A DNA stretch of 64,000 nt, taken from the sequence record PV252060.1; one strand, given 5' to 3'. Numbering within the stretch: the first letter of the stretch is position 1; every line of letters starts with the position of its first letter. Origin of the DNA: Escherichia phage nithesis. A program made the translations under genes and the position numbers. Shown here piece by piece: positions 2,279 to 62,241 of the stretch. Under the pieces are notes generated by a model. It was not told where the DNA came from. It did no database searches and saw only the letters and a list, made by a program, of their open reading frames with translations.

Positions 2279-2989
2279 ATGCAAAAATTATCGGAAGTAT
2301 ATCGTGGCTTGGCATTAAGTACCTTGAAGGGTACTGGTGCAGTCACCGATGACAGATTAGGCATTGAACCAGATAGTAAGCCAGAGATATTGGCTGCTAT
2401 TAATGAAGGGTTAGTTCGACTGCATAGTCGTTTCCCCCTTAGAACTAATAGCTGCATTGTGGAGATGAAGGAAGGTCGTACTGATTATCCCCTCCAATCT
2501 CGGTATGCTTACTCCAGATTTACTAAGCCTACTCTTGAGATTCAATATCCATACATCATGGATGGGTTCATGAAACCTTTCCAGGATGATGTTATTAAAA
2601 TCTTAAATGTGTTTGATAACTCAGGGAATCGCCGTAGACTTAACGACGATTCAGATCCCCATGCAATTTTCACCCCACGGCCTGATACTATTCAGTGTAT
2701 GCGACCTCGACACTTCGAGGCACTTAACGTAACTTATCAAGCTAAGCACCCAATACTTACGGGTGATGAAGAACAGGAAGTTGACTTAGCAGATACACTA
2801 ATGACAGCACTTCATAACTGGGTGGGTTATCGTTACCACACTGGTTTGAATACTCCGGAAGCTAATGCTAAGGCAGCAGAGTATCTGCAAACGTATGAAA
2901 GCATCTGTGGTGAGGTTGTTGATTACGACCTGGCTAATGGAAGTATTTCAATTACCGAAACTAAATTTGAACAACGAGGATGGCGATGA
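2279..2989 (+). CDS. virion structural protein, function unknown
   Basis: 236-aa ORF between terminase and tail fibre genes; 10-nt overlap with the next gene suggests translational coupling. Confidence 0.4.
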   Translation: MQKLSEVYRGLALSTLKGTGAVTDDRLGIEPDSKPEILAAINEGLVRLHSRFPLRTNSCIVEMKEGRTDYPLQSRYAYSRFTKPTLEIQYPYIMDGFMKPFQDDVIKILNVFDNSGNRRRLNDDSDPHAIFTPRPDTIQCMRPRHFEALNVTYQAKHPILTGDEEQEVDLADTLMTALHNWVGYRYHTGLNTPEANAKAAEYLQTYESICGEVVDYDLANGSISITETKFEQRGWR

Positions 2990-5900
2990 ACGCACATACC
3001 CCCTTTGATGCAAAACAGGATTGGACCAATCCATACTGCCAGAACAGTTCCAATGACCCAATGGTAGATGCACTACTTGGTAATGCTTACCATGTGGTTC
3101 GAACTGTGTACTGCAATCTTGGTAACCTCAAACTTCTGTATGATTTCCTGAACCAGTATGGAATGGTACTTGGTGTACAGTCTGAGGCAGAACTTAAGGC
3201 TCTAACCACTGAAGCTAAGTATGCCCGTATCTACGGTTTCTCCCGTGCAGGTGACCGTCAGATAACTGACTACCTTTATGTGGAAGGTGACCGTACCGGT
3301 ATCATTCCAGATGACCCAAAGGCAACTGGTTCATGGATTACCGTTGCTACTTCTGGTTCCAATGATAGTGGTACTTCCTCCGGTGAAGGTGCTTATATTC
3401 CATGGGTATATGCAAACGGTTCTGCTACTGGTGGTGAAACTACAATCAACGTACCAGATGGTACGGTGGGTGTACCTTTTATTATTGTTAATGGCGACAT
3501 GCAGTATGTAGGTCGTGGTTTTGAGTTTAATATTGACAGCCTGTCTGTAACTCTGGCTCAACCTCTGGAAGAGGGTGATGAAGTAGTATTCCTGCTGACT
3601 GGGGTTCCTGCTGTGCCAGATAACCCTAACGTTAGTGATTGGGTTCAGATCAACTGGTTATATAACAATGGTGCTGCTGTAGGTGGCGAGCAGGTTATTG
3701 CTATTCCTTATACCTTCCAGTCTGTTCCTGCTGTGTATAAGAATGGGCTTCGTTTATATAAAGGATTAACCACTGAGTCTTATACTGCTGACCCCGATAA
3801 CCAACGTATACTTCTTACTGAGTCACTGGCAACCGATGACCGGTTGATTGTACAGCTTGGTGGCGAGTCATGGGTATTTGAAGCATCAGACAGTACACTT
3901 CAAGAAGTGGCTCGTGCAGCTAACGTAAAAGACTCTGAAGTAATCCTTAGTACGGACACCACTCAGGTACTTAATGGTAAGAAGGTAATTTATGATGTAG
4001 TTTCCCAACGTATATACTGGTTACCTACCCTACCTACCAATGTTTATATCATCTCTGTCTCAGACGGACAGCTAACATATTCTCCTGGAAATATTACTGT
4101 TACTCTGCTGGATTCCTACCAGCAGCAGAATGCCAGAGAACTATGGCGACGTAACCTTGCTGAGGCCGGTTTAACTCTTGTCGATGGTAGCTTTGAAGAA
4201 GGTGTCACGGCGAACAGTGCAACTGATGCTGTTTGGCATATCGCTGGTGGGCAGTGTTACACGTGGGGTGGCGAATTTCCTAAAACTGTAGTACCTGGCT
4301 CAACTCCAGCAACAACTGGTGGGATTAGTGATGATGCATGGTTAAGTGTTGGTGATGTAAGTTTAAGAAGTGACCTGGCTGATGATGACGGAGTTGATTT
4401 AGTTAACGGAGCAGTCAAGGATAAAGATTTTGAGCTTTACAAAAGGCAATCAATTGCAAAAAATAGATTTAATTTCGCTTTTGGGAATAAATACTCAAGA
4501 AGCTTTAATAATAATTTGCGCTTACAGTTGCAAACTTATGTAGAGAATGTATTTAACTTTGCACCAAAAGCGGTGTCACTTCCGAGTGGGCGGGTGGTAT
4601 GTATCTACACAGTGAAGGATGGTGCTAATATTGACCCAGGACAGGACGGCACACCTATGCACATTGATTACCTAATATCTGATGATAACGGTGTGAACTG
4701 GACCACTGGAACTGTTGTTAACAAAGGACCAGGATATGCCACTTCTGAAACGGTACTATTCCTAAATAATCTTGATGGATATTTGTATTGTTTCTTTACA
4801 TCAATGAAGGGGATTACTGGGTGGGGACATGCACAACAAGGAACTAACCCTGACACAACATCAACTATTGAATATGTCATATCAAAAGATGGTGGCAATA
4901 CATGGAGCACCCCTGTTGATATTACGCCATTGGTTAAACCATCTGGTGCTTACTTCTCATCAATTGCACCTACACAAGTCGGGTACATAAATGGCAAGCC
5001 TGCAATTCCTTATTATTATTTAACTCAACTATCTACAGGAATAGTTGAGGGGTATATCACAGTTGATGATAGCGGTAACTACACCTACGGTGAAGATGTC
5101 AGGAAAGACACCGATGTCGATACGCTAGGAACTTCTGGCGGCGAGATTGGATTTGGCAATTTCTATGATGGAACACCTTTTGCAATTGAGCGTGCTGCCG
5201 ACACAACAATCAAACCGTATAAAATCGCAATACAAAAGCTATTAATGCAAGATTCTAGTGGAAAGTGGGTTGTAAAAGGACAGTTCCCTACCACTAACTG
5301 TATGGCGTCGTTCTTACGCGTTGGCCCTGATTATGGTTTTGATAAGGATTATCTCTTTGTTATCGCACCTGTTGGTCAATCAGGTAATTATGAAGGACGT
5401 GCAAACATTAGAGTATTCGACTGCTCTGACGATTTTAGCAATCCTATTGATCGCGGCATGATAACAGACACAAATGCTTTGGAGGCAGGTTACAGTTCAA
5501 CCGTGCTTCTATCTTCTGGTTCATTTATGAGTATGTGGAACGGTAGACAGTGGACGATTAGCAATTCAATTTACACTATTAACAGGCTTGCGGGCAACGC
5601 AATTATCCCTGTCCCGTTTTGTGGCACTATTAAAATTGTTGACATTAGAAAGACTTTTGCACCCGATTTAAGAACCAACGAGCGAGTGATTGGTCTTGCT
5701 GACGGCAAAGAATATACATGGAACGGTTCATCATTTGTGCTTGGTATTTCGTCACCAACGAAAACGCTAACAACTGAAACAACTACATTAGATGCCAACT
5801 CTTGCGACGTATTTTATCTCGACGCTGGAAGTAATGGGTCAGTGATAACGTCAATCACTGGTGGATATATCGGACAAAGGATATCAATACTTCCGTTATC

Positions 5901-56354: not shown

Positions 56355-56651
56355 TTACTCTGCTTTACTGCTCGTTTGAGACACGTTGTATTGGTTACCA
56401 CTACCAACGTTAACGATTGTAGTCTGAGACTGTCCTTTATTAGACAGTGACCAAATCAGTGCTACTACCCAGAATACTAGTGACCAGCCTAATACGATAT
56501 TAAGCACACCAATGCCCCACTTAGAGGCATGGCCTCGTGCAAAAGCAATGATAGTAGGGATAAGGTATACAGCTAATATGAATAAGAAAACAAGGATTGC
56601 TGCTAAAGATTCCATGATGGTTCCTATGTGGGGTTGAGTTAGTTTCTTCAC
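56355..56651 (-). CDS. superinfection-immunity-like small membrane protein
   Basis: 98 aa; two transmembrane segments and IIAFARGHASKWGIGVLNIVLGWSLVFWVVALIWS pattern resembling the phage Imm family. Confidence 0.45.
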   Translation of the reverse strand: MKKLTQPHIGTIMESLAAILVFLFILAVYLIPTIIAFARGHASKWGIGVLNIVLGWSLVFWVVALIWSLSNKGQSQTTIVNVGSGNQYNVSQTSSKAE

Positions 56652-56688: not shown

Positions 56689-56898
56689 TTACTCAGCATC
56701 TTTGCTTGTAGGAGCAAGAGCTTTTTTCAAGTAATTACGTACTGAACGATAAGTTTCTTTGGTTTCCATAGCACCATCATTTACGAATGTGATGCGTGCA
56801 CAATCAGACAGTGGAACAGATTCCACTGCAATCACGTTTGCAGCATTAATGGTTACACGTACATTTGAGGTTGCATTAGTTACTTGAAATACTGACAT
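56689..56898 (-). CDS. small hypothetical protein
   Basis: 69-aa ORF. Confidence 0.3.
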   Translation of the reverse strand: MSVFQVTNATSNVRVTINAANVIAVESVPLSDCARITFVNDGAMETKETYRSVRNYLKKALAPTSKDAE

Positions 56899-56907
56899 GT
56901 TGTTTCC

Positions 56908-57414
56908 TTATTTACTGCTTCTTGCAGCTACTGGTTTGTTTTCCTGATTCTGATACTTGCCATTGTAATTAGCAGGTTCTTGAACCAGATGAAATAATAC
57001 TTGAGCTATCCCAGCACCAGCCGGGATATGCAATTTCTTGCGACCATTATAGACCAGTTCAAGAGTCAAATACCCTTTCCATCCCGGTTCTATTACGGTA
57101 TTGAACACAGATAATGCACGTCTTGCCCACGTAGACTTATCGTGAACGATGGCTACGCAGGATGGTGACATGTTGAACTTCTCAATTGCTGAAGCCAATG
57201 TGAACTTACCGAGATGGCGTGATACTTGATCTCCATCAACGACCTTCACCATTGGAATCAACCCAAATAAGCGATAAAAGGTGATATCTTGTTTGATACG
57301 AATATCGTAACCAGCTTCACCTAATCCATAGCTTACACCGTGTTCGGATACCTTATGGTCTGGAACATCCAGCAATTGGGATGAACGATAGAGAGAATTA
57401 CCATTAACAACCAT
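56908..57414 (-). CDS. dcd: dCTP deaminase / dUTPase-superfamily protein
   Basis: 168 aa; GYDIRI, NTVIEPGWKGYLTLEL and GAGIAQ resemble conserved dCTP deaminase/dUTPase motifs. Confidence 0.55.
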   Translation of the reverse strand: MVVNGNSLYRSSQLLDVPDHKVSEHGVSYGLGEAGYDIRIKQDITFYRLFGLIPMVKVVDGDQVSRHLGKFTLASAIEKFNMSPSCVAIVHDKSTWARRALSVFNTVIEPGWKGYLTLELVYNGRKKLHIPAGAGIAQVLFHLVQEPANYNGKYQNQENKPVAARSSK

Positions 57415-58589
57415 TATTTCATTCCTTTAGGGATATGAACTACCTCCCCAAAAGGTACGGTAGCATTGGGATTATTCAGAACACACCAGATGATTGGAAT
57501 ATCAAATGGCAATTCTTCCATAGGGCGAACATACATATCAGAGAATATGATTGCAGCGGTTGGCTTATTCTTAATAATCCACTCGCGTACTGGTTCAAGG
57601 TTTGTACCACCACGACCGGTAATCTTAATCTCTTCAAAAGTATCTTCTTCAGTGATGTCTATTTCTTCCTGGATAATATCGTCGAAGGTAATTAGGGACA
57701 TCTTCTTAGGATTGAACTGGCTCTTAACGTAAGCAACCTCTGAGTTAAAACGCAGAGAGTCAGCACTACTAATAGAACCAGATACATCCTCAAAGTAGGC
57801 TAAGTGACGTAGACGTCCTTCATCATCTTCCAAGGAAGGTAGATAAATATCTGTGTAACGACGGTTAGGTCTGGCCCACGTATAGTGAGTGTCATCAATG
57901 TCGGTAAAGAAGTTCATGAGAACTTCCTGCCATGGAACCACTGGTTTAAGGAATTGGGTAATAACCTCTTCCATACGTCCAGCACCTTTACCGGGCATCT
58001 GTCCACCGGCCATTTTCTGGCTTTGCATTGAACGTACTACGTTGTTGACGACAGCACCCTGGGACTGCCCCGAAGTGGGGGATTTCATGTCGCCAGCAAG
58101 ACCTGCTCCAGCACCCCCTGACGGCTTCTGCCTTTTCTGGGGGTTCTTCATCAGGTCATCGTAGATGTCTTCTTCGACCCATCCCTTATATTTATGGTCT
58201 TTGCAAATACCTTCATTGATACCAGTGAACTTGTAACCATCTTCTTCTAACTGAAGGTTAATGAAGTGGTCACATGCCTGGTTCCAGATTTCCGGGTCAC
58301 GGCTTCCACGACGAATGTCATGTAGATATGCCACATGCCAGAGTTCGTGCATTAATACTGTTTCTCTTGCATCTGGACACATCCAGATAAAGAAATCAGG
58401 ATTGAAATGGAGTTCTATCCCATCAGTACATGCAGTGGGACAATCCTCACGTTTCCATGAGAATTTAAGACTACAAAGTAATGAACCAAAGAACGCAGCA
58501 GACTTGCCTAGGAAAGCCTGAGCCTGAATACGGTCATACTCACGCATGAGTTGTTCATCACTAAGTGTGTGCTGAGGAAATTGGTTCAT
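57414..58589 (-). CDS. VWA-domain protein with N-terminal HExxH metallopeptidase-like domain (DUF2201-like)
   Basis: HELWH zinc-binding-type motif in N-terminal half; MIDAS-like DVSGSIS motif in C-terminal half; adjacent to AAA+ ATPase gene; start moved to internal Met. Confidence 0.5.
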   Translation of the reverse strand: MNQFPQHTLSDEQLMREYDRIQAQAFLGKSAAFFGSLLCSLKFSWKREDCPTACTDGIELHFNPDFFIWMCPDARETVLMHELWHVAYLHDIRRGSRDPEIWNQACDHFINLQLEEDGYKFTGINEGICKDHKYKGWVEEDIYDDLMKNPQKRQKPSGGAGAGLAGDMKSPTSGQSQGAVVNNVVRSMQSQKMAGGQMPGKGAGRMEEVITQFLKPVVPWQEVLMNFFTDIDDTHYTWARPNRRYTDIYLPSLEDDEGRLRHLAYFEDVSGSISSADSLRFNSEVAYVKSQFNPKKMSLITFDDIIQEEIDITEEDTFEEIKITGRGGTNLEPVREWIIKNKPTAAIIFSDMYVRPMEELPFDIPIIWCVLNNPNATVPFGEVVHIPKGMK

Positions 58590-58593
58590 TGTT

Positions 58594-59646
58594 TTATCCG
58601 TGAATGTAGCGAGAGATATTAGCAGCAGCCTTACGCCATTCAGGAGTAGCCTGAAGATCTGGTAATGCATTGCCTACTGTACGGAAGTACAGAATCTTAT
58701 GGGTGAACGTTCTAAAACGTTCAATGTACTGAAGAACATCAACAAAGTTCTCTTCAGTAGTCTTGTTAGCCAAATGGTTAACAGTAGCCCAACACAGGTT
58801 GTTATCATCAGGTAGTGCACAGCCCAGAGGGTCTTTGACTACCTTCTCAATCGTAATTATACGATTGTATACCTGAGTAAACTGAACAAATTCTGTAGCC
58901 TTACCAGCAGTAACGTGTCCTGCATAGTAGATAGAATCTTCATCAGGAAGAGCACCTTCTGGTAAGTTCTTGAGGTCTTTGTTAACAAAGTCCCAGGTAC
59001 GAGGGCAACAGAACGTTTTGTTCTTATGTGCTGGGTCGAAGTCATGCAGATAACCAGGGTTAGCATGTAAGAATGCAACCAGACGTTCATCCCATTGCTG
59101 AGGAATCATTACGTCTTCAACAAAGATGTCGAAGTTAAGTTCCATTTCAAAGTGAACCACACGAGACTGCATTGCAGTACCTAATGGGTTAACAATGGCA
59201 CGGTCAGTAGCTTTATTACCTGCACAGACAATCATCACATTAGGATGAAGTTTTTTCTGACCAGTCATACGGTCTAGAATCAGTTTATATGCAGCAGCTA
59301 CTACTTCTTTCTTAGCTGAGTTGAACTCATCAAGGAATAAGAGCCAGCCATTATACCCTTCTGGTAATTCATCTCCCTCAATTGGGAATAAGTCAGCGAA
59401 TGGAATAAACTCTGCACGGTCACCATTACGGAATGGTAAACCAGACAGGTCTTCCGGGGCAGAAGTAGACAGACGATGGTCTATCAGTTTCATACCAAAT
59501 TCTTCTGCAATAGAACGAATGATTGCAGATTTACCCATACCAGGTGATGAAGTCAGGAACGGTACGTTACCTGCTTTCAAAGCACGGATAATAAAGTTAC
59601 GAGCTTGACGTGAATTACATACGGTCAAGGAGTCGATGCTTGTCAT
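58594..59646 (-). CDS. AAA+ ATPase (MoxR/AAA_5-like)
   Basis: 350 aa; Walker A SPGMGKSAI, Walker B LFLDEFN, sensor-like VCAGNKATD. Confidence 0.6.
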   Translation of the reverse strand: MTSIDSLTVCNSRQARNFIIRALKAGNVPFLTSSPGMGKSAIIRSIAEEFGMKLIDHRLSTSAPEDLSGLPFRNGDRAEFIPFADLFPIEGDELPEGYNGWLLFLDEFNSAKKEVVAAAYKLILDRMTGQKKLHPNVMIVCAGNKATDRAIVNPLGTAMQSRVVHFEMELNFDIFVEDVMIPQQWDERLVAFLHANPGYLHDFDPAHKNKTFCCPRTWDFVNKDLKNLPEGALPDEDSIYYAGHVTAGKATEFVQFTQVYNRIITIEKVVKDPLGCALPDDNNLCWATVNHLANKTTEENFVDVLQYIERFRTFTHKILYFRTVGNALPDLQATPEWRKAAANISRYIHG

Positions 59647-59680: not shown

Positions 59681-60010
59681 TTAAGATTTGGTGCAGGGAT
59701 ATGCCTTGTGTACTGAGTACACAACAATTTGAGATGTATTCTTCATCTTGAGGATTGCAGAATCATAAATAACTACTTTGGCAATCTTAGGCAGAATGAC
59801 AGAATACTTAATACCTTCAGGAACACAGTTATTTGTACTCTCGATGTAAGAGATCATACTGCCCATGAAGAATCCTTGTCCGAACGCATCACGAGTGTCA
59901 TCCAGATAGGCCTGAGCACCTTCCAGAATTGGTTCTGGTTCAATTGCTTGTGCATTTGGAACCAAAGCTATCAGTGCAGCTACTGCAATACCTTTAAGTA
60001 AAGTTTTCAT
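59681..60010 (-). CDS. small secreted/periplasmic protein
   Basis: 109 aa with classical signal peptide MKTLLKGIAVAALIALVPNAQA. Confidence 0.4.
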   Translation of the reverse strand: MKTLLKGIAVAALIALVPNAQAIEPEPILEGAQAYLDDTRDAFGQGFFMGSMISYIESTNNCVPEGIKYSVILPKIAKVVIYDSAILKMKNTSQIVVYSVHKAYPCTKS

Positions 60011-60196
60011 TTAGTTACCTTTCATTTCATTGAGTTTAAGTACACCGATAGGGGTTAATGACCACCCAAGACCAGTATTGAACTGCACTAAGCCCAGTTT
60101 CTTAAGAGACTGTGCGGTTTTGTTATTACGGTTGCTGGTGGCAGAACCACCTTGAACCATACGAAGGAAAATAATCTGAGACTGGGTTAATTTCAC
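60011..60196 (-). CDS. small hypothetical protein
   Basis: 61-aa basic ORF abutting neighbours. Confidence 0.3.
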   Translation of the reverse strand: MKLTQSQIIFLRMVQGGSATSNRNNKTAQSLKKLGLVQFNTGLGWSLTPIGVLKLNEMKGN

Positions 60197-60453
60197 TCTT
60201 CTTCCTCTTCTTCGGGTAATACGGATAGATCAACCCCTAAATGTTTTAGGCGTTTCTCTAAGTCATCTATCTTCTTTTGATAAAATGCTACTAATTTAGG
60301 GTATATGCTTGCACGAGCTTGTATTCCTAAATCCGTATCACAGAAGGTTACTTTAATCATGTGAGGAGCTTTCTTCAGACTAGCCAATTGCTGCCGGTTG
60401 TCGTTGTACTCTTCATACAATTTTTCAACTAAACGTAGGTTGTGAATATTCAT
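60193..60453 (-). CDS. small hypothetical protein
   Basis: 86 aa, charged, coiled-coil-like. Confidence 0.3.
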   Translation of the reverse strand: MNIHNLRLVEKLYEEYNDNRQQLASLKKAPHMIKVTFCDTDLGIQARASIYPKLVAFYQKKIDDLEKRLKHLGVDLSVLPEEEEEE

Positions 60454-60671
60454 TTCTTCTCCGGTATGAACTGCATTATACAGTTTTGATTACGAGGGAT
60501 ATTCAATTCACATTCATACTTGAGGGTTTGTGTTACAGAGTTTGGGGTAGAACCAAAGTAGGTATTAGAAATAGCTACAAATCCTGCACCTATTAGACCA
60601 CCTAGCAAGAATGAGAAAAATGCAATCTCTTTATACATTTCCTGGCTCCAGATGTAGAAAACCCCAGTCAA
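60450..60671 (-). CDS. small membrane protein
   Basis: One predicted transmembrane helix (FFSFLLGGLIGAGFVAI). Confidence 0.3.
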   Translation of the reverse strand: MTGVFYIWSQEMYKEIAFFSFLLGGLIGAGFVAISNTYFGSTPNSVTQTLKYECELNIPRNQNCIMQFIPEKK

Positions 60672-60699
60672 TGCTGGGGTTTATCTATCAGTTTATGCT

Positions 60700-60960
60700 T
60701 TATAGGCCATGTGGTCGGCATAGACTACCCGAACCAAACGAACGGTGTCCAAGTCGGCCCAGGATTAGATTGCTTACTTCAGCAGCAGCACGGCTGAATG
60801 CTTTAAAGTCAAAGACTACGACACCAAAGAGTGGGGCTGCAATAGCAGCTACCATGATTGGCGTCAGGTCAACCAGTGACATACCCAAGATTAAGTGAGC
60901 AGCGTAGGCAATAATACCCATTCCAAAACCACAACCATATCCAATAGCAATTTTACGCAT
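60700..60960 (-). CDS. small membrane protein
   Basis: 86 aa, two hydrophobic segments. Confidence 0.3.
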   Translation of the reverse strand: MRKIAIGYGCGFGMGIIAYAAHLILGMSLVDLTPIMVAAIAAPLFGVVVFDFKAFSRAAAEVSNLILGRLGHRSFGSGSLCRPHGL

Positions 60961-61017: not shown

Positions 61018-61044
61018 AAAAAAAAAAAAAAAAAAAAAAAAAAA
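61018..61044. repeat. 27-nt A/T homopolymer
   Basis: Uninterrupted run of 27 A on + strand (poly-T on minus strand) immediately next to the hairpin at 61045-61067. Confidence 0.9.
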
Positions 61045-61067
61045 GACCTCCCTTCAATATGGAGGTC
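61018..61067 (-). terminator. intrinsic terminator with unusually long T-tract
   Basis: GACCTCC-9 nt loop-GGAGGTC hairpin followed on the minus strand by T27; downstream of the gene ending at 61118. Confidence 0.6.
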
Positions 61068-62025: not shown

Positions 62026-62241
62026 TTAGTTGTTTACACAGTAGATAGCAAAAGCTATCCATCCTGCCATTACAAAGCAGCCAAGTGAGTATGCTCCATA
62101 GTAGCAGTAAGCAAACTTAGACTTGTGGGCATGAACTATTGTAGACAGAACCAGTACAGATAAAACTATCAGTATTAGCTGAAAGATTACTTCAAAAGGG
62201 ATTAGCATAGTTTTTACCTCCAAGCAAAAAATAGGCCTCAC
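62026..62241 (-). CDS. small membrane protein
   Basis: 71 aa, two hydrophobic segments; start likely internal. Confidence 0.3.
   Translation of the reverse strand: MRPIFCLEVKTMLIPFEVIFQLILIVLSVLVLSTIVHAHKSKFAYCYYGAYSLGCFVMAGWIAFAIYCVNN

Follow-up and report, generated by a model that had tools for sequence, protein, structure and literature searches.

The gp17-gp24 interval and its five small genes

Five consecutive small open reading frames (ORFs), labeled A to E here, occupy positions 59681-60960 on the minus strand of a 64,000-nucleotide (nt) stretch of Escherichia phage nithesis (PV252060.1), the whole of which is called the window below. The phage is a Gamaleyavirus, that is, a G7C/Bp4-like N4-like coliphage. 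By nucleotide comparison, 56 Gamaleyavirus-type records in total match the segment 59400-61200, with ~92% identity in Escherichia phages PD38, Bp4 and IME11. The annotated relatives 24-32N, St11Ph5, Bp4 and G7C place the block in the interval bounded by gp17, which encodes an Ig-like head-decoration protein, and by the ATPase gene gp24. This interval belongs to the N4-type left arm and lies downstream of the RNA polymerase II (RNAPII) genes gp15/gp16. Within a mosaic slot of accessory genes, gene A probably represents an orphan branch of the Rap1a-type immunity fold that is restricted to phages, and the rest of the block is ordinary accessory material.

All five genes run on the minus strand. 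Gene A (59681-60010), the equivalent of G7C gp17.3, encodes a 109-amino-acid (aa) precursor with a signal peptide at residues 1-22 (nt 59945-60010) and an 87-aa mature protein. Gene B (60011-60196; gp17.2 equivalent) starts with GTG and encodes a basic, cytoplasmic, minimal winged-helix-turn-helix protein of 61 aa. The product of gene C (60193-60453), an accessory cassette, is a soluble protein of 86 aa with an acidic C-terminal tail (EEEEEE). Gene D (60450-60638; gp17.1 equivalent) encodes 62 aa from its ATG, the mechanical ORF extending to a TTG at 60671 (73 aa). Gene E (60700-60960), also an accessory cassette, encodes an 86-aa protein with two transmembrane helices. Each ORF has a ribosome-binding site of the GGAG/AAGG type 6-10 nt upstream. 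Genes D and C overlap by 4 nt, as do C and B, and the stop codon of B directly abuts the ATG of A; these D-C-B-A cistrons are probably co-translated.

Because all five products match phage-only PHROG families (E-values 1e-31 to 1e-61; all of unknown function) and all five genes evolve under purifying selection (pairwise ratios of nonsynonymous to synonymous substitution, dN/dS, of 0.03-0.27 against relatives), A to E are real genes and not chance ORFs. The initial annotation of this region had described five consecutive ORFs of 61-109 aa, and the coordinates, ribosome-binding sites, family matches and dN/dS values agree with it. Its count of one signal peptide and two proteins with transmembrane helices is likewise matched, by the leader of A, the single segment of D and the two segments of E. 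Its title, which called all five proteins secreted or membrane-bound, was overstated: hydrophobic segments are missing from B and C, leaving only A, D and E as envelope-targeted. That the block is rich in uncharacterized small proteins of this kind holds, and no paper characterizing them was found.

Scans of Pfam, NCBIfam and PADLOC returned no significant match for any of the five proteins, the sole recurring signal being a weak Rap1a match of A. The PADLOC defense-system models gave none at E-values up to 1, which leaves the suggested anti-defense role unsupported. Neither A nor C matches PF17420, the superinfection exclusion (sie) family of the P22 gp17 type, and B, D and E have no Pfam match of any kind. 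Clear homology to housekeeping phage proteins, which the initial annotation had named as counting against itself, was looked for and was absent. An origin in E. coli chromosomes or plasmids was rejected, neither blastn nor tblastn having found a match.

The organization of the slot was examined in 25 related N4-like loci (GenBank phages, IMG/VR and metagenome contigs), with gene families mapped by tblastn. The order is gp17-[P22 gp17-like sie]-[E]-D-[C]-[Bp4 orf72]-B-A-gp24, where brackets denote optional genes. The core consists of D, B and A, and the optional cassettes are E and C; the type phage G7C lacks C and has D-B-A alone, as gp17.1, gp17.2 and gp17.3. Within the phage collection, A is present in 56/56 Gamaleyavirus-type records, B in 81 records that reach Klebsiella and Erwinia phages, and D in 98 that include Klebsiella, Erwinia and Enterobacter phages. 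Only 21 phage records carry C, and only 21 carry E (11 Gamaleyavirus-type genomes and 10 Klebsiella KP8-like phages). The other relatives either lack E or have a P22 gp17-like sie gene in its place. A PF17420 sie gene (E-value 5.8e-45) occupies the slot in St11Ph5, U1G, IME11 and N4; the window has none. N4 itself fills the same interval with the P22 gp17-like sie gene, the membrane proteins gp19 and gp23, and the lipoprotein gp20. Homology of A to E with N4 gp18-23 was rejected by blastp, the top match (A against gp19, E-value 0.003 in a six-sequence database) being hydrophobic-segment noise.

The gp17-gp24 interval is a hotspot for small accessory genes, many of them envelope-directed, and not one module. 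The block forms its variable head, with a D-B-A core and inserted E and C cassettes. The block is not a unit, E and C being optional. More modestly than any function, these results give a block that had been hypothetical a defined architecture, a core with swappable cassettes.

Export, family and fold of gene A

In the predicted Sec signal of A, K2 and K6 mark the n-region, residues 7-17 form the hydrophobic core, and cleavage is expected after residue 22, at an AQA|I motif. Every full-length A homolog has a comparable leader. The family is tiny: searches of 5.8 and 1.84 billion proteins, by word index and by exhaustive HMMER, yielded 8 representatives at E-values <1e-3. Three of these (P0012, P0013 and P0015) lie on N4-like phage contigs in the same gp16/gp17-to-gp24 interval, and two (P0016 and P0018) lie on ~2 kb contigs, adjoining an AAA ATPase gene. 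All homologs with classifiable contigs are in N4-like phages, the contexts covered being those of these five members. A word-index search with a wider profile, A2, found only proteins on phage-sized or short contigs, and no A homolog occurs in the 5,426 E. coli genomes and 72,556 plasmids. As far as its contigs could be classified, the A family is confined to N4-like phages.

No effector or type VI secretion system (T6SS) gene stands beside A, the neighbors being the winged-helix gene B and the gp24 ATPase gene. On a short metagenomic contig (L005, 1120-2204), P0016 directly follows a gene for a 248-aa AAA ATPase instead of preceding gp24. This is the family member nearest to the Pfam Rap1a family, and the adjacency of A-type and AAA ATPase genes may be more than coincidence.

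AlphaFold predicts a four-to-five-helix bundle for A, with pLDDT values of 81-95 over the mature region. Structure prediction had been proposed as a check in the initial annotation, and the model suggests a resemblance to the Rap1a/Tai4 fold, whose members neutralize cell-wall toxins. As a predicted small all-alpha subunit, it superposes on Rap1a; in a Foldseek search with the model, Tai4 (6ijf) is the sole target with a template-modeling (TM) score >0.5, at 0.59/0.62. At the sequence level, 10/11 A-family members match PF18602 (Rap1a), and each alignment reaches the last model position, every score being below the 27.7-bit cut-off.

The cysteine pair has the same arrangement in both families. 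In A, the loop that joins predicted helices 42-58 and 69-87 carries Cys62, and Cys106 is close to the C-terminus. In 13/13 A-family members checked, down to ~25% identity, one cysteine is in the predicted alpha2-alpha3 loop and the other is 1-3 residues from the C-terminus, with a spacing of exactly 44 residues. In Rap1a, whose signal sequence is 26 residues long, folding requires a disulfide that joins Cys78 of the alpha2-alpha3 loop to Cys122 of the C-terminal region (PMC3852654). The spacing of that pair equals the spacing of Cys62 and Cys106 in A. The leaders of both Rap1a and Tai4 are 26 residues long (PMC3695027, PMC3852654). A is probably a remote homolog of the Rap1a fold, though it falls below the curated sequence threshold.

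This assignment is already present in database annotations. A third-party annotation of a metagenome-assembled genome labels an A homolog 'RAP1A...complex', and several recent GenBank records name A 'Tai4'. The record of phage UE-S5a labels the gene 'tai4', and the paper describing that phage makes no mention of the gene. Full-text literature searches found no paper discussing phage-encoded Tai4 or Rap1a, so that the fold assignment is neither analyzed nor tested in the literature found.

The alleles of A diverge within conserved surroundings. Between the window and G7C-type phages, A is 36-37% identical, as against 90-95% for the flanking B, D and gp24. At least 4 allele classes (window/Bp4, G7C, phiG17 and Jgk1/P0012) share 29-42% identity with one another. 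Synonymous divergence between the classes is saturated, and dN/dS within classes is 0.06-0.46, mostly 0.06-0.3. These values indicate that the alleles are ancient and recombination-shuffled, each being kept by selection. Such a pattern is what a specificity determinant would be expected to show.

Companion genes, hairpins and neighbors

Gene B is a minimal winged-helix DNA-binding protein. It has an isoelectric point of 11.3, no hydrophobic segment, and the core topology of a MarR-type winged helix-turn-helix. Its 61 residues align only to that core in proteins of 130-156 residues; unlike MarR-family proteins, it lacks the N- and C-terminal dimerization helices. Sequence and profile searches of the PDB with the B alignment gave no meaningful match. 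Because the stop codon of B abuts the ATG of A, the two may be translationally coupled.

No informative family or PDB match was found for D, E or C. The product of C matches phrog_19185 (E-value 2.6e-46), contains no hydrophobic segment and has a dN/dS of 0.03-0.15. For D, the start is almost certainly the ATG at 60638, because phrog_7508 covers only residues 12-73 of the long ORF, relatives annotate the gene as 189 bp, and the sequence upstream of this ATG is not conserved where E is absent. In its 62-aa form, D has one hydrophobic segment (residues 4-25, Kyte-Doolittle score 2.28), predicted to be a single N-terminal transmembrane helix, with a topology that is ambiguous by charge counting. 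Its two allele classes are ~45% identical overall and have in common a near-invariant C-terminal peptide with two cysteines, ECELNIPRNQ(N/S)C(V/I)MQF(V/I)PEKK. Weaker D homologs occur outside the N4-like phages, in phiEco32-like coliphages of ~76-78 kb (KBNP1711, TH42 and Bas87) and in a 249-kb Enterobacter jumbo phage. The distribution suggests that D is part of a widely shared small-membrane-protein module.

The product of E matches phrog_26763 (E-value 6.7e-51) and has two hydrophobic segments, at ~7-27 and 35-53, with a Kyte-Doolittle score of 2.31. The second helix and a basic C-terminal tail (net +4) are conserved and the first helix is variable; charge counts predict an N-in/C-in topology. 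A holin or antiholin role for D or E was rejected, since the lysis genes are at a different site; neither protein has a holin-family match. The St11Ph5 lysis genes (holin gp62, N-acetylmuramidase gp61 and spanins gp60.1/60.2) are in a late, opposite-strand region ~50 kb away.

Two minus-strand hairpins frame gene E. Between E and D, a terminator-like stem-loop with a 9-bp stem (60659-60682; AAACCCCAG-CATTGA-CTGGGGTTT, followed by TCT) has a predicted energy of -19.1 kcal/mol and a z-score of -2.3. It is absent in relatives without E, which indicates that it moves with the E cassette; E looks like an inserted, self-contained unit because it has this hairpin of its own. The second hairpin lies downstream of gp17 and upstream of the block (61018-61067) and resembles an intrinsic terminator, with the stem GACCTCC..GGGAGGTC (61045-61067) followed by T27 (61018-61044). 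It is kept in 14/16 Gamaleyavirus loci scanned. In 13 related Gamaleyaviruses it is followed by T7-T8 only, as against T27 in the window, where this is the sole homopolymer of >=10 bases in 64 kb. The T27 tract may reflect a true expansion of the homopolymer or an artifact of assembly or sequencing.

In phages without E, the gp17 hairpin stands ~25 nt ahead of the start of D. In these relatives (L001, L002, L012, L013 and others), the hairpin and T7 are followed within ~25 nt by GACTTAAACA..CTGGAGCCAGGAAATG, which holds the ribosome-binding site and start of D (window ~60639-60660). This AT-rich stretch could be a middle promoter of the N4 RNAPII type. A consensus scan found no sigma-70-like promoter ahead of E or D. 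Structured RNA in the intergenic regions was rejected, Rfam giving only a chance match to a microRNA model (E-value 0.46). In N4, the region downstream of the early RNAPII genes gp15/gp16 is transcribed as middle RNA (PMC4496689). The label of an early region is doubtful because N4 synteny puts the block in that middle-RNA region, and by this analogy middle expression appears more likely than early.

The conserved downstream neighbor of A is gp24 (58594-59646, minus strand), an AAA+ (MoxR-like) ATPase (Pfam AAA, 6.8e-06; phrog_1297, 1e-133). It is followed on the same strand by gp25 (57414-58589), a DUF2201 metallopeptidase-like and VWA-like protein of 391 aa by comparison with relatives (PF13203, 5e-57; PF09967, 2e-34). 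The mechanical ORF of gp25 spans 57414-58670 (418 aa) and overlaps gp24 by 77 nt; the 391 aa of the relatives correspond to a start at 58589. Of the 'ATPase pair' described earlier beside the block, gp24 is an ATPase and gp25, a DUF2201/VWA protein, is not. In several relatives, inserted HNH/homing-endonuclease genes split gp24 (L003, Bp4, 3196-4247; L022, U1G, 2862-4796; L008/L009), and gp25 is likewise split in Bp4; both are intact in the window.

Beyond this MoxR-like ATPase/VWA pair and the dCTP deaminase gene that follows it lies a 69-aa ORF, the gp27 equivalent (56689-56898, minus strand). It has a sub-threshold match (E-value 0.0046, 17 bits, cut-off 27) to bpX6, a domain of MoxR-vWA-beta-propeller ternary systems. 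The gp27.1 equivalent (56355-56651, minus strand), 3 kb downstream of the block, is a homolog of the T4 superinfection-immunity membrane protein Imm (PF14373, E-value 9.3e-17, 61 bits, cut-off 27.9). Upstream, between the RNAP2 gene and gp17, a small hydrophobic ORF (62026-62241, minus strand; 71 aa, two hydrophobic stretches) occupies the position of G7C gp16.1; it has no Pfam match and lies between two terminator-like hairpins (62258-62235 and 62027-62008).

Candidate roles of A and relation to known systems

If A functions as its relatives do, its pathway would involve: export by Sec, with cleavage of the leader after Ala22; Dsb-dependent formation of a Cys62-Cys106 bond; folding in the periplasm into a small Rap1a/Tai4-type helical bundle stapled by this bond; and, probably, dimerization. 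The Rap1a dimer sterically plugs the active site of Ssp1, a Tae4-family DL-endopeptidase. By analogy, A would stoichiometrically plug the active site of a peptidoglycan endopeptidase that enters the periplasm from the exterior, the most favored target being a T6SS-delivered Tae4-class effector of neighboring Enterobacteriaceae. The wall of the infected cell would be held intact until the phage's own lysis cassette fires, and the diverged allele classes would reflect different target specificities. Tae4 and Ssp1 are toxic in the periplasm only and are neutralized there by an exported immunity protein (PMC3695027, PMC3852654).

The target of A is probably foreign, because the endolysin that the phage itself encodes, within a separate cassette of late lysis genes, is an N-acetylmuramidase (St11Ph5 annotation) and because peptidoglycan hydrolase activity is absent from the N4 ejection proteins (PMC13434306). 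On the same grounds, A is disfavored as a regulator of the phage's own wall-degrading enzymes. We tentatively propose that A may inhibit an outside-derived periplasmic peptidoglycan endopeptidase, for which a T6SS Tae4-class effector is the leading candidate. A bolder form is rather doubtful: that a virulent phage arms the infected periplasm with a Rap1a-type immunity protein, so that the cell outlasts T6SS amidase attack until progeny release, with alleles matched to different effectors.

Several observations weigh against the proposal. The alignment behind the structure prediction is shallow and only 2/5 models are confident, and no Foldseek E-value is significant. Window A scores 14.3 bits against PF18602 (E-value 0.058; cut-off 27.7), and the best family member, P0016, scores 24.0 bits (E-value 5.5e-05), which is also below the 27.7-bit gathering cut-off. 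Against the solved chains of Rap1a and Tai4, A shows 4-9% sequence identity, and PDB sequence and profile searches with A1, A2 and P0016 gave no meaningful match. Exhaustive HMMER with its 8 representatives linked no effector, T6SS gene or bacterial homolog to A. Finally, a small helical periplasmic bundle such as A could bind many things.

A role in superinfection exclusion was also considered, with A as a Rap1a-like periplasmic inhibitor of the virion-borne peptidoglycan hydrolase of a second phage, working alongside the Imm homolog and, in relatives, the P22 gp17-like gene. In T4, the membrane protein Imm is paired with periplasmic Spackle (Sp, gp61.3), which inhibits the gp5 tail lysozyme. 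Sp is a small, helical, periplasmic phage protein with a signal peptide that neutralizes a peptidoglycan hydrolase coming from outside; A is likewise small and helical, with a signal peptide. This reading is attractive because a T4 Imm homolog lies nearby, 3 kb from A on the same strand, and because St11Ph5, U1G, IME11 and N4 carry PF17420 sie genes in this slot. The diversity of A alleles would also be consistent with an arms race among competing phages. However, no fold or sequence similarity of A to Sp was detected, and the enzymes that the Rap1a fold is known to block are cysteine endopeptidases and not lysozymes. We regard a Spackle-like role as unlikely. The suggested link of the block to superinfection exclusion stands insofar as it concerns the slot in relatives and N4 and the nearby Imm homolog; it does not extend to a PF17420 gene in the window.

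The likeness of A to Rap1a could instead be incidental, with A having an unrelated periplasmic role (an HdeA/YmgD-like chaperone, receptor masking, or an accessory of the MoxR-type ATPase/VWA pair) in a block of unrelated accessory genes. Rap1a and Tai4 are clearly ahead of all other structures in two programs, however, the same Pfam family recurs in 10/11 A-family members, and chance is hard to credit for the identical 44-residue spacing and placement of the cysteines. The gp24 and gp25 proteins have no signal peptides, and a direct partnership with A across the inner membrane is therefore unlikely. An incidental resemblance is improbable.

Host takeover or lysis timing is a weaker explanation, in which A would target a host NlpC/P60 endopeptidase (MepS/Spr, MepH, NlpC or YafL), freezing wall growth or delaying lysis. 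These E. coli enzymes are found in the periplasm and share a superfamily with Tae4/Ssp1 (PMC3852654). N4-type phages are known for delayed lysis and have rIIA/rIIB homologs, and the universality of A in Gamaleyavirus (56/56 records) is as expected for an invariant target. At least 4 allele classes at 29-42% identity within near-identical flanks are at odds with such a target, however, and N4 itself has no A; this role is quite unlikely. Finally, that all five genes form one early envelope-directed module for host takeover or anti-defense, as first suggested, is highly improbable: three of the five are envelope-targeted, all five are uncharacterized and four lie in one overlapping or abutting string, but B is of the DNA-binding winged-helix type, C is a soluble protein, E and C occur in only 21 of the core-carrying phage records, E has its own terminator-like hairpin, G7C has D-B-A alone, PADLOC gave no matches, and N4 synteny makes the region middle and not early.

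If A does neutralize a periplasm-acting wall endopeptidase, lytic gut phages would join or resist contact-dependent bacterial warfare or phage-phage competition. The protein would have been borrowed from the T6SS immunity repertoire, linking phage infection biology to interbacterial antagonism, and one of the many conserved small periplasmic phage proteins would gain a testable reason to exist. Such phage-borne 'virocell armor' against interbacterial warfare would be a category without description in the literature searched. It would also bear on phage therapy in dense polymicrobial settings, as Gamaleyaviruses are being isolated against uropathogenic, avian pathogenic and enterotoxigenic E. 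coli (UPEC, APEC and ETEC).

The block can be set against several known arrangements. The N4 gp18-gp23 interval is, like the window's, a slot between the gp17 decoration protein and the gp24 ATPase that holds small envelope-targeted proteins, and it also holds a homing-type endonuclease. Its gene content is wholly different, with no homology of gp19-23 to A-E detectable by blastp.

Rap1a (Serratia marcescens SMA2260; PDB 3ZFI/4BI8) and Agrobacterium Tai4 (6IJE/6IJF), the proteins of PF18602, are T6SS immunity proteins against Tae4-family DL-endopeptidases. In contrast to these, A is carried by a virulent phage, stands between a winged-helix gene and the gene of an AAA+ ATPase, and has no adjacent effector or T6SS genes; at such divergence, the effector-contact residues of Rap1a are not mappable onto A. 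Comparable too are the orphan T6SS immunity genes and acquired interbacterial defense (AID) clusters, which, like A, are of immunity type without a cognate effector and show diverged alleles and horizontal exchange. Those genes reside on bacterial chromosomes or mobile elements and are active throughout the life of the cell, whereas A is carried by a lytic phage, and any protection that it may confer would be limited to one infection cycle.

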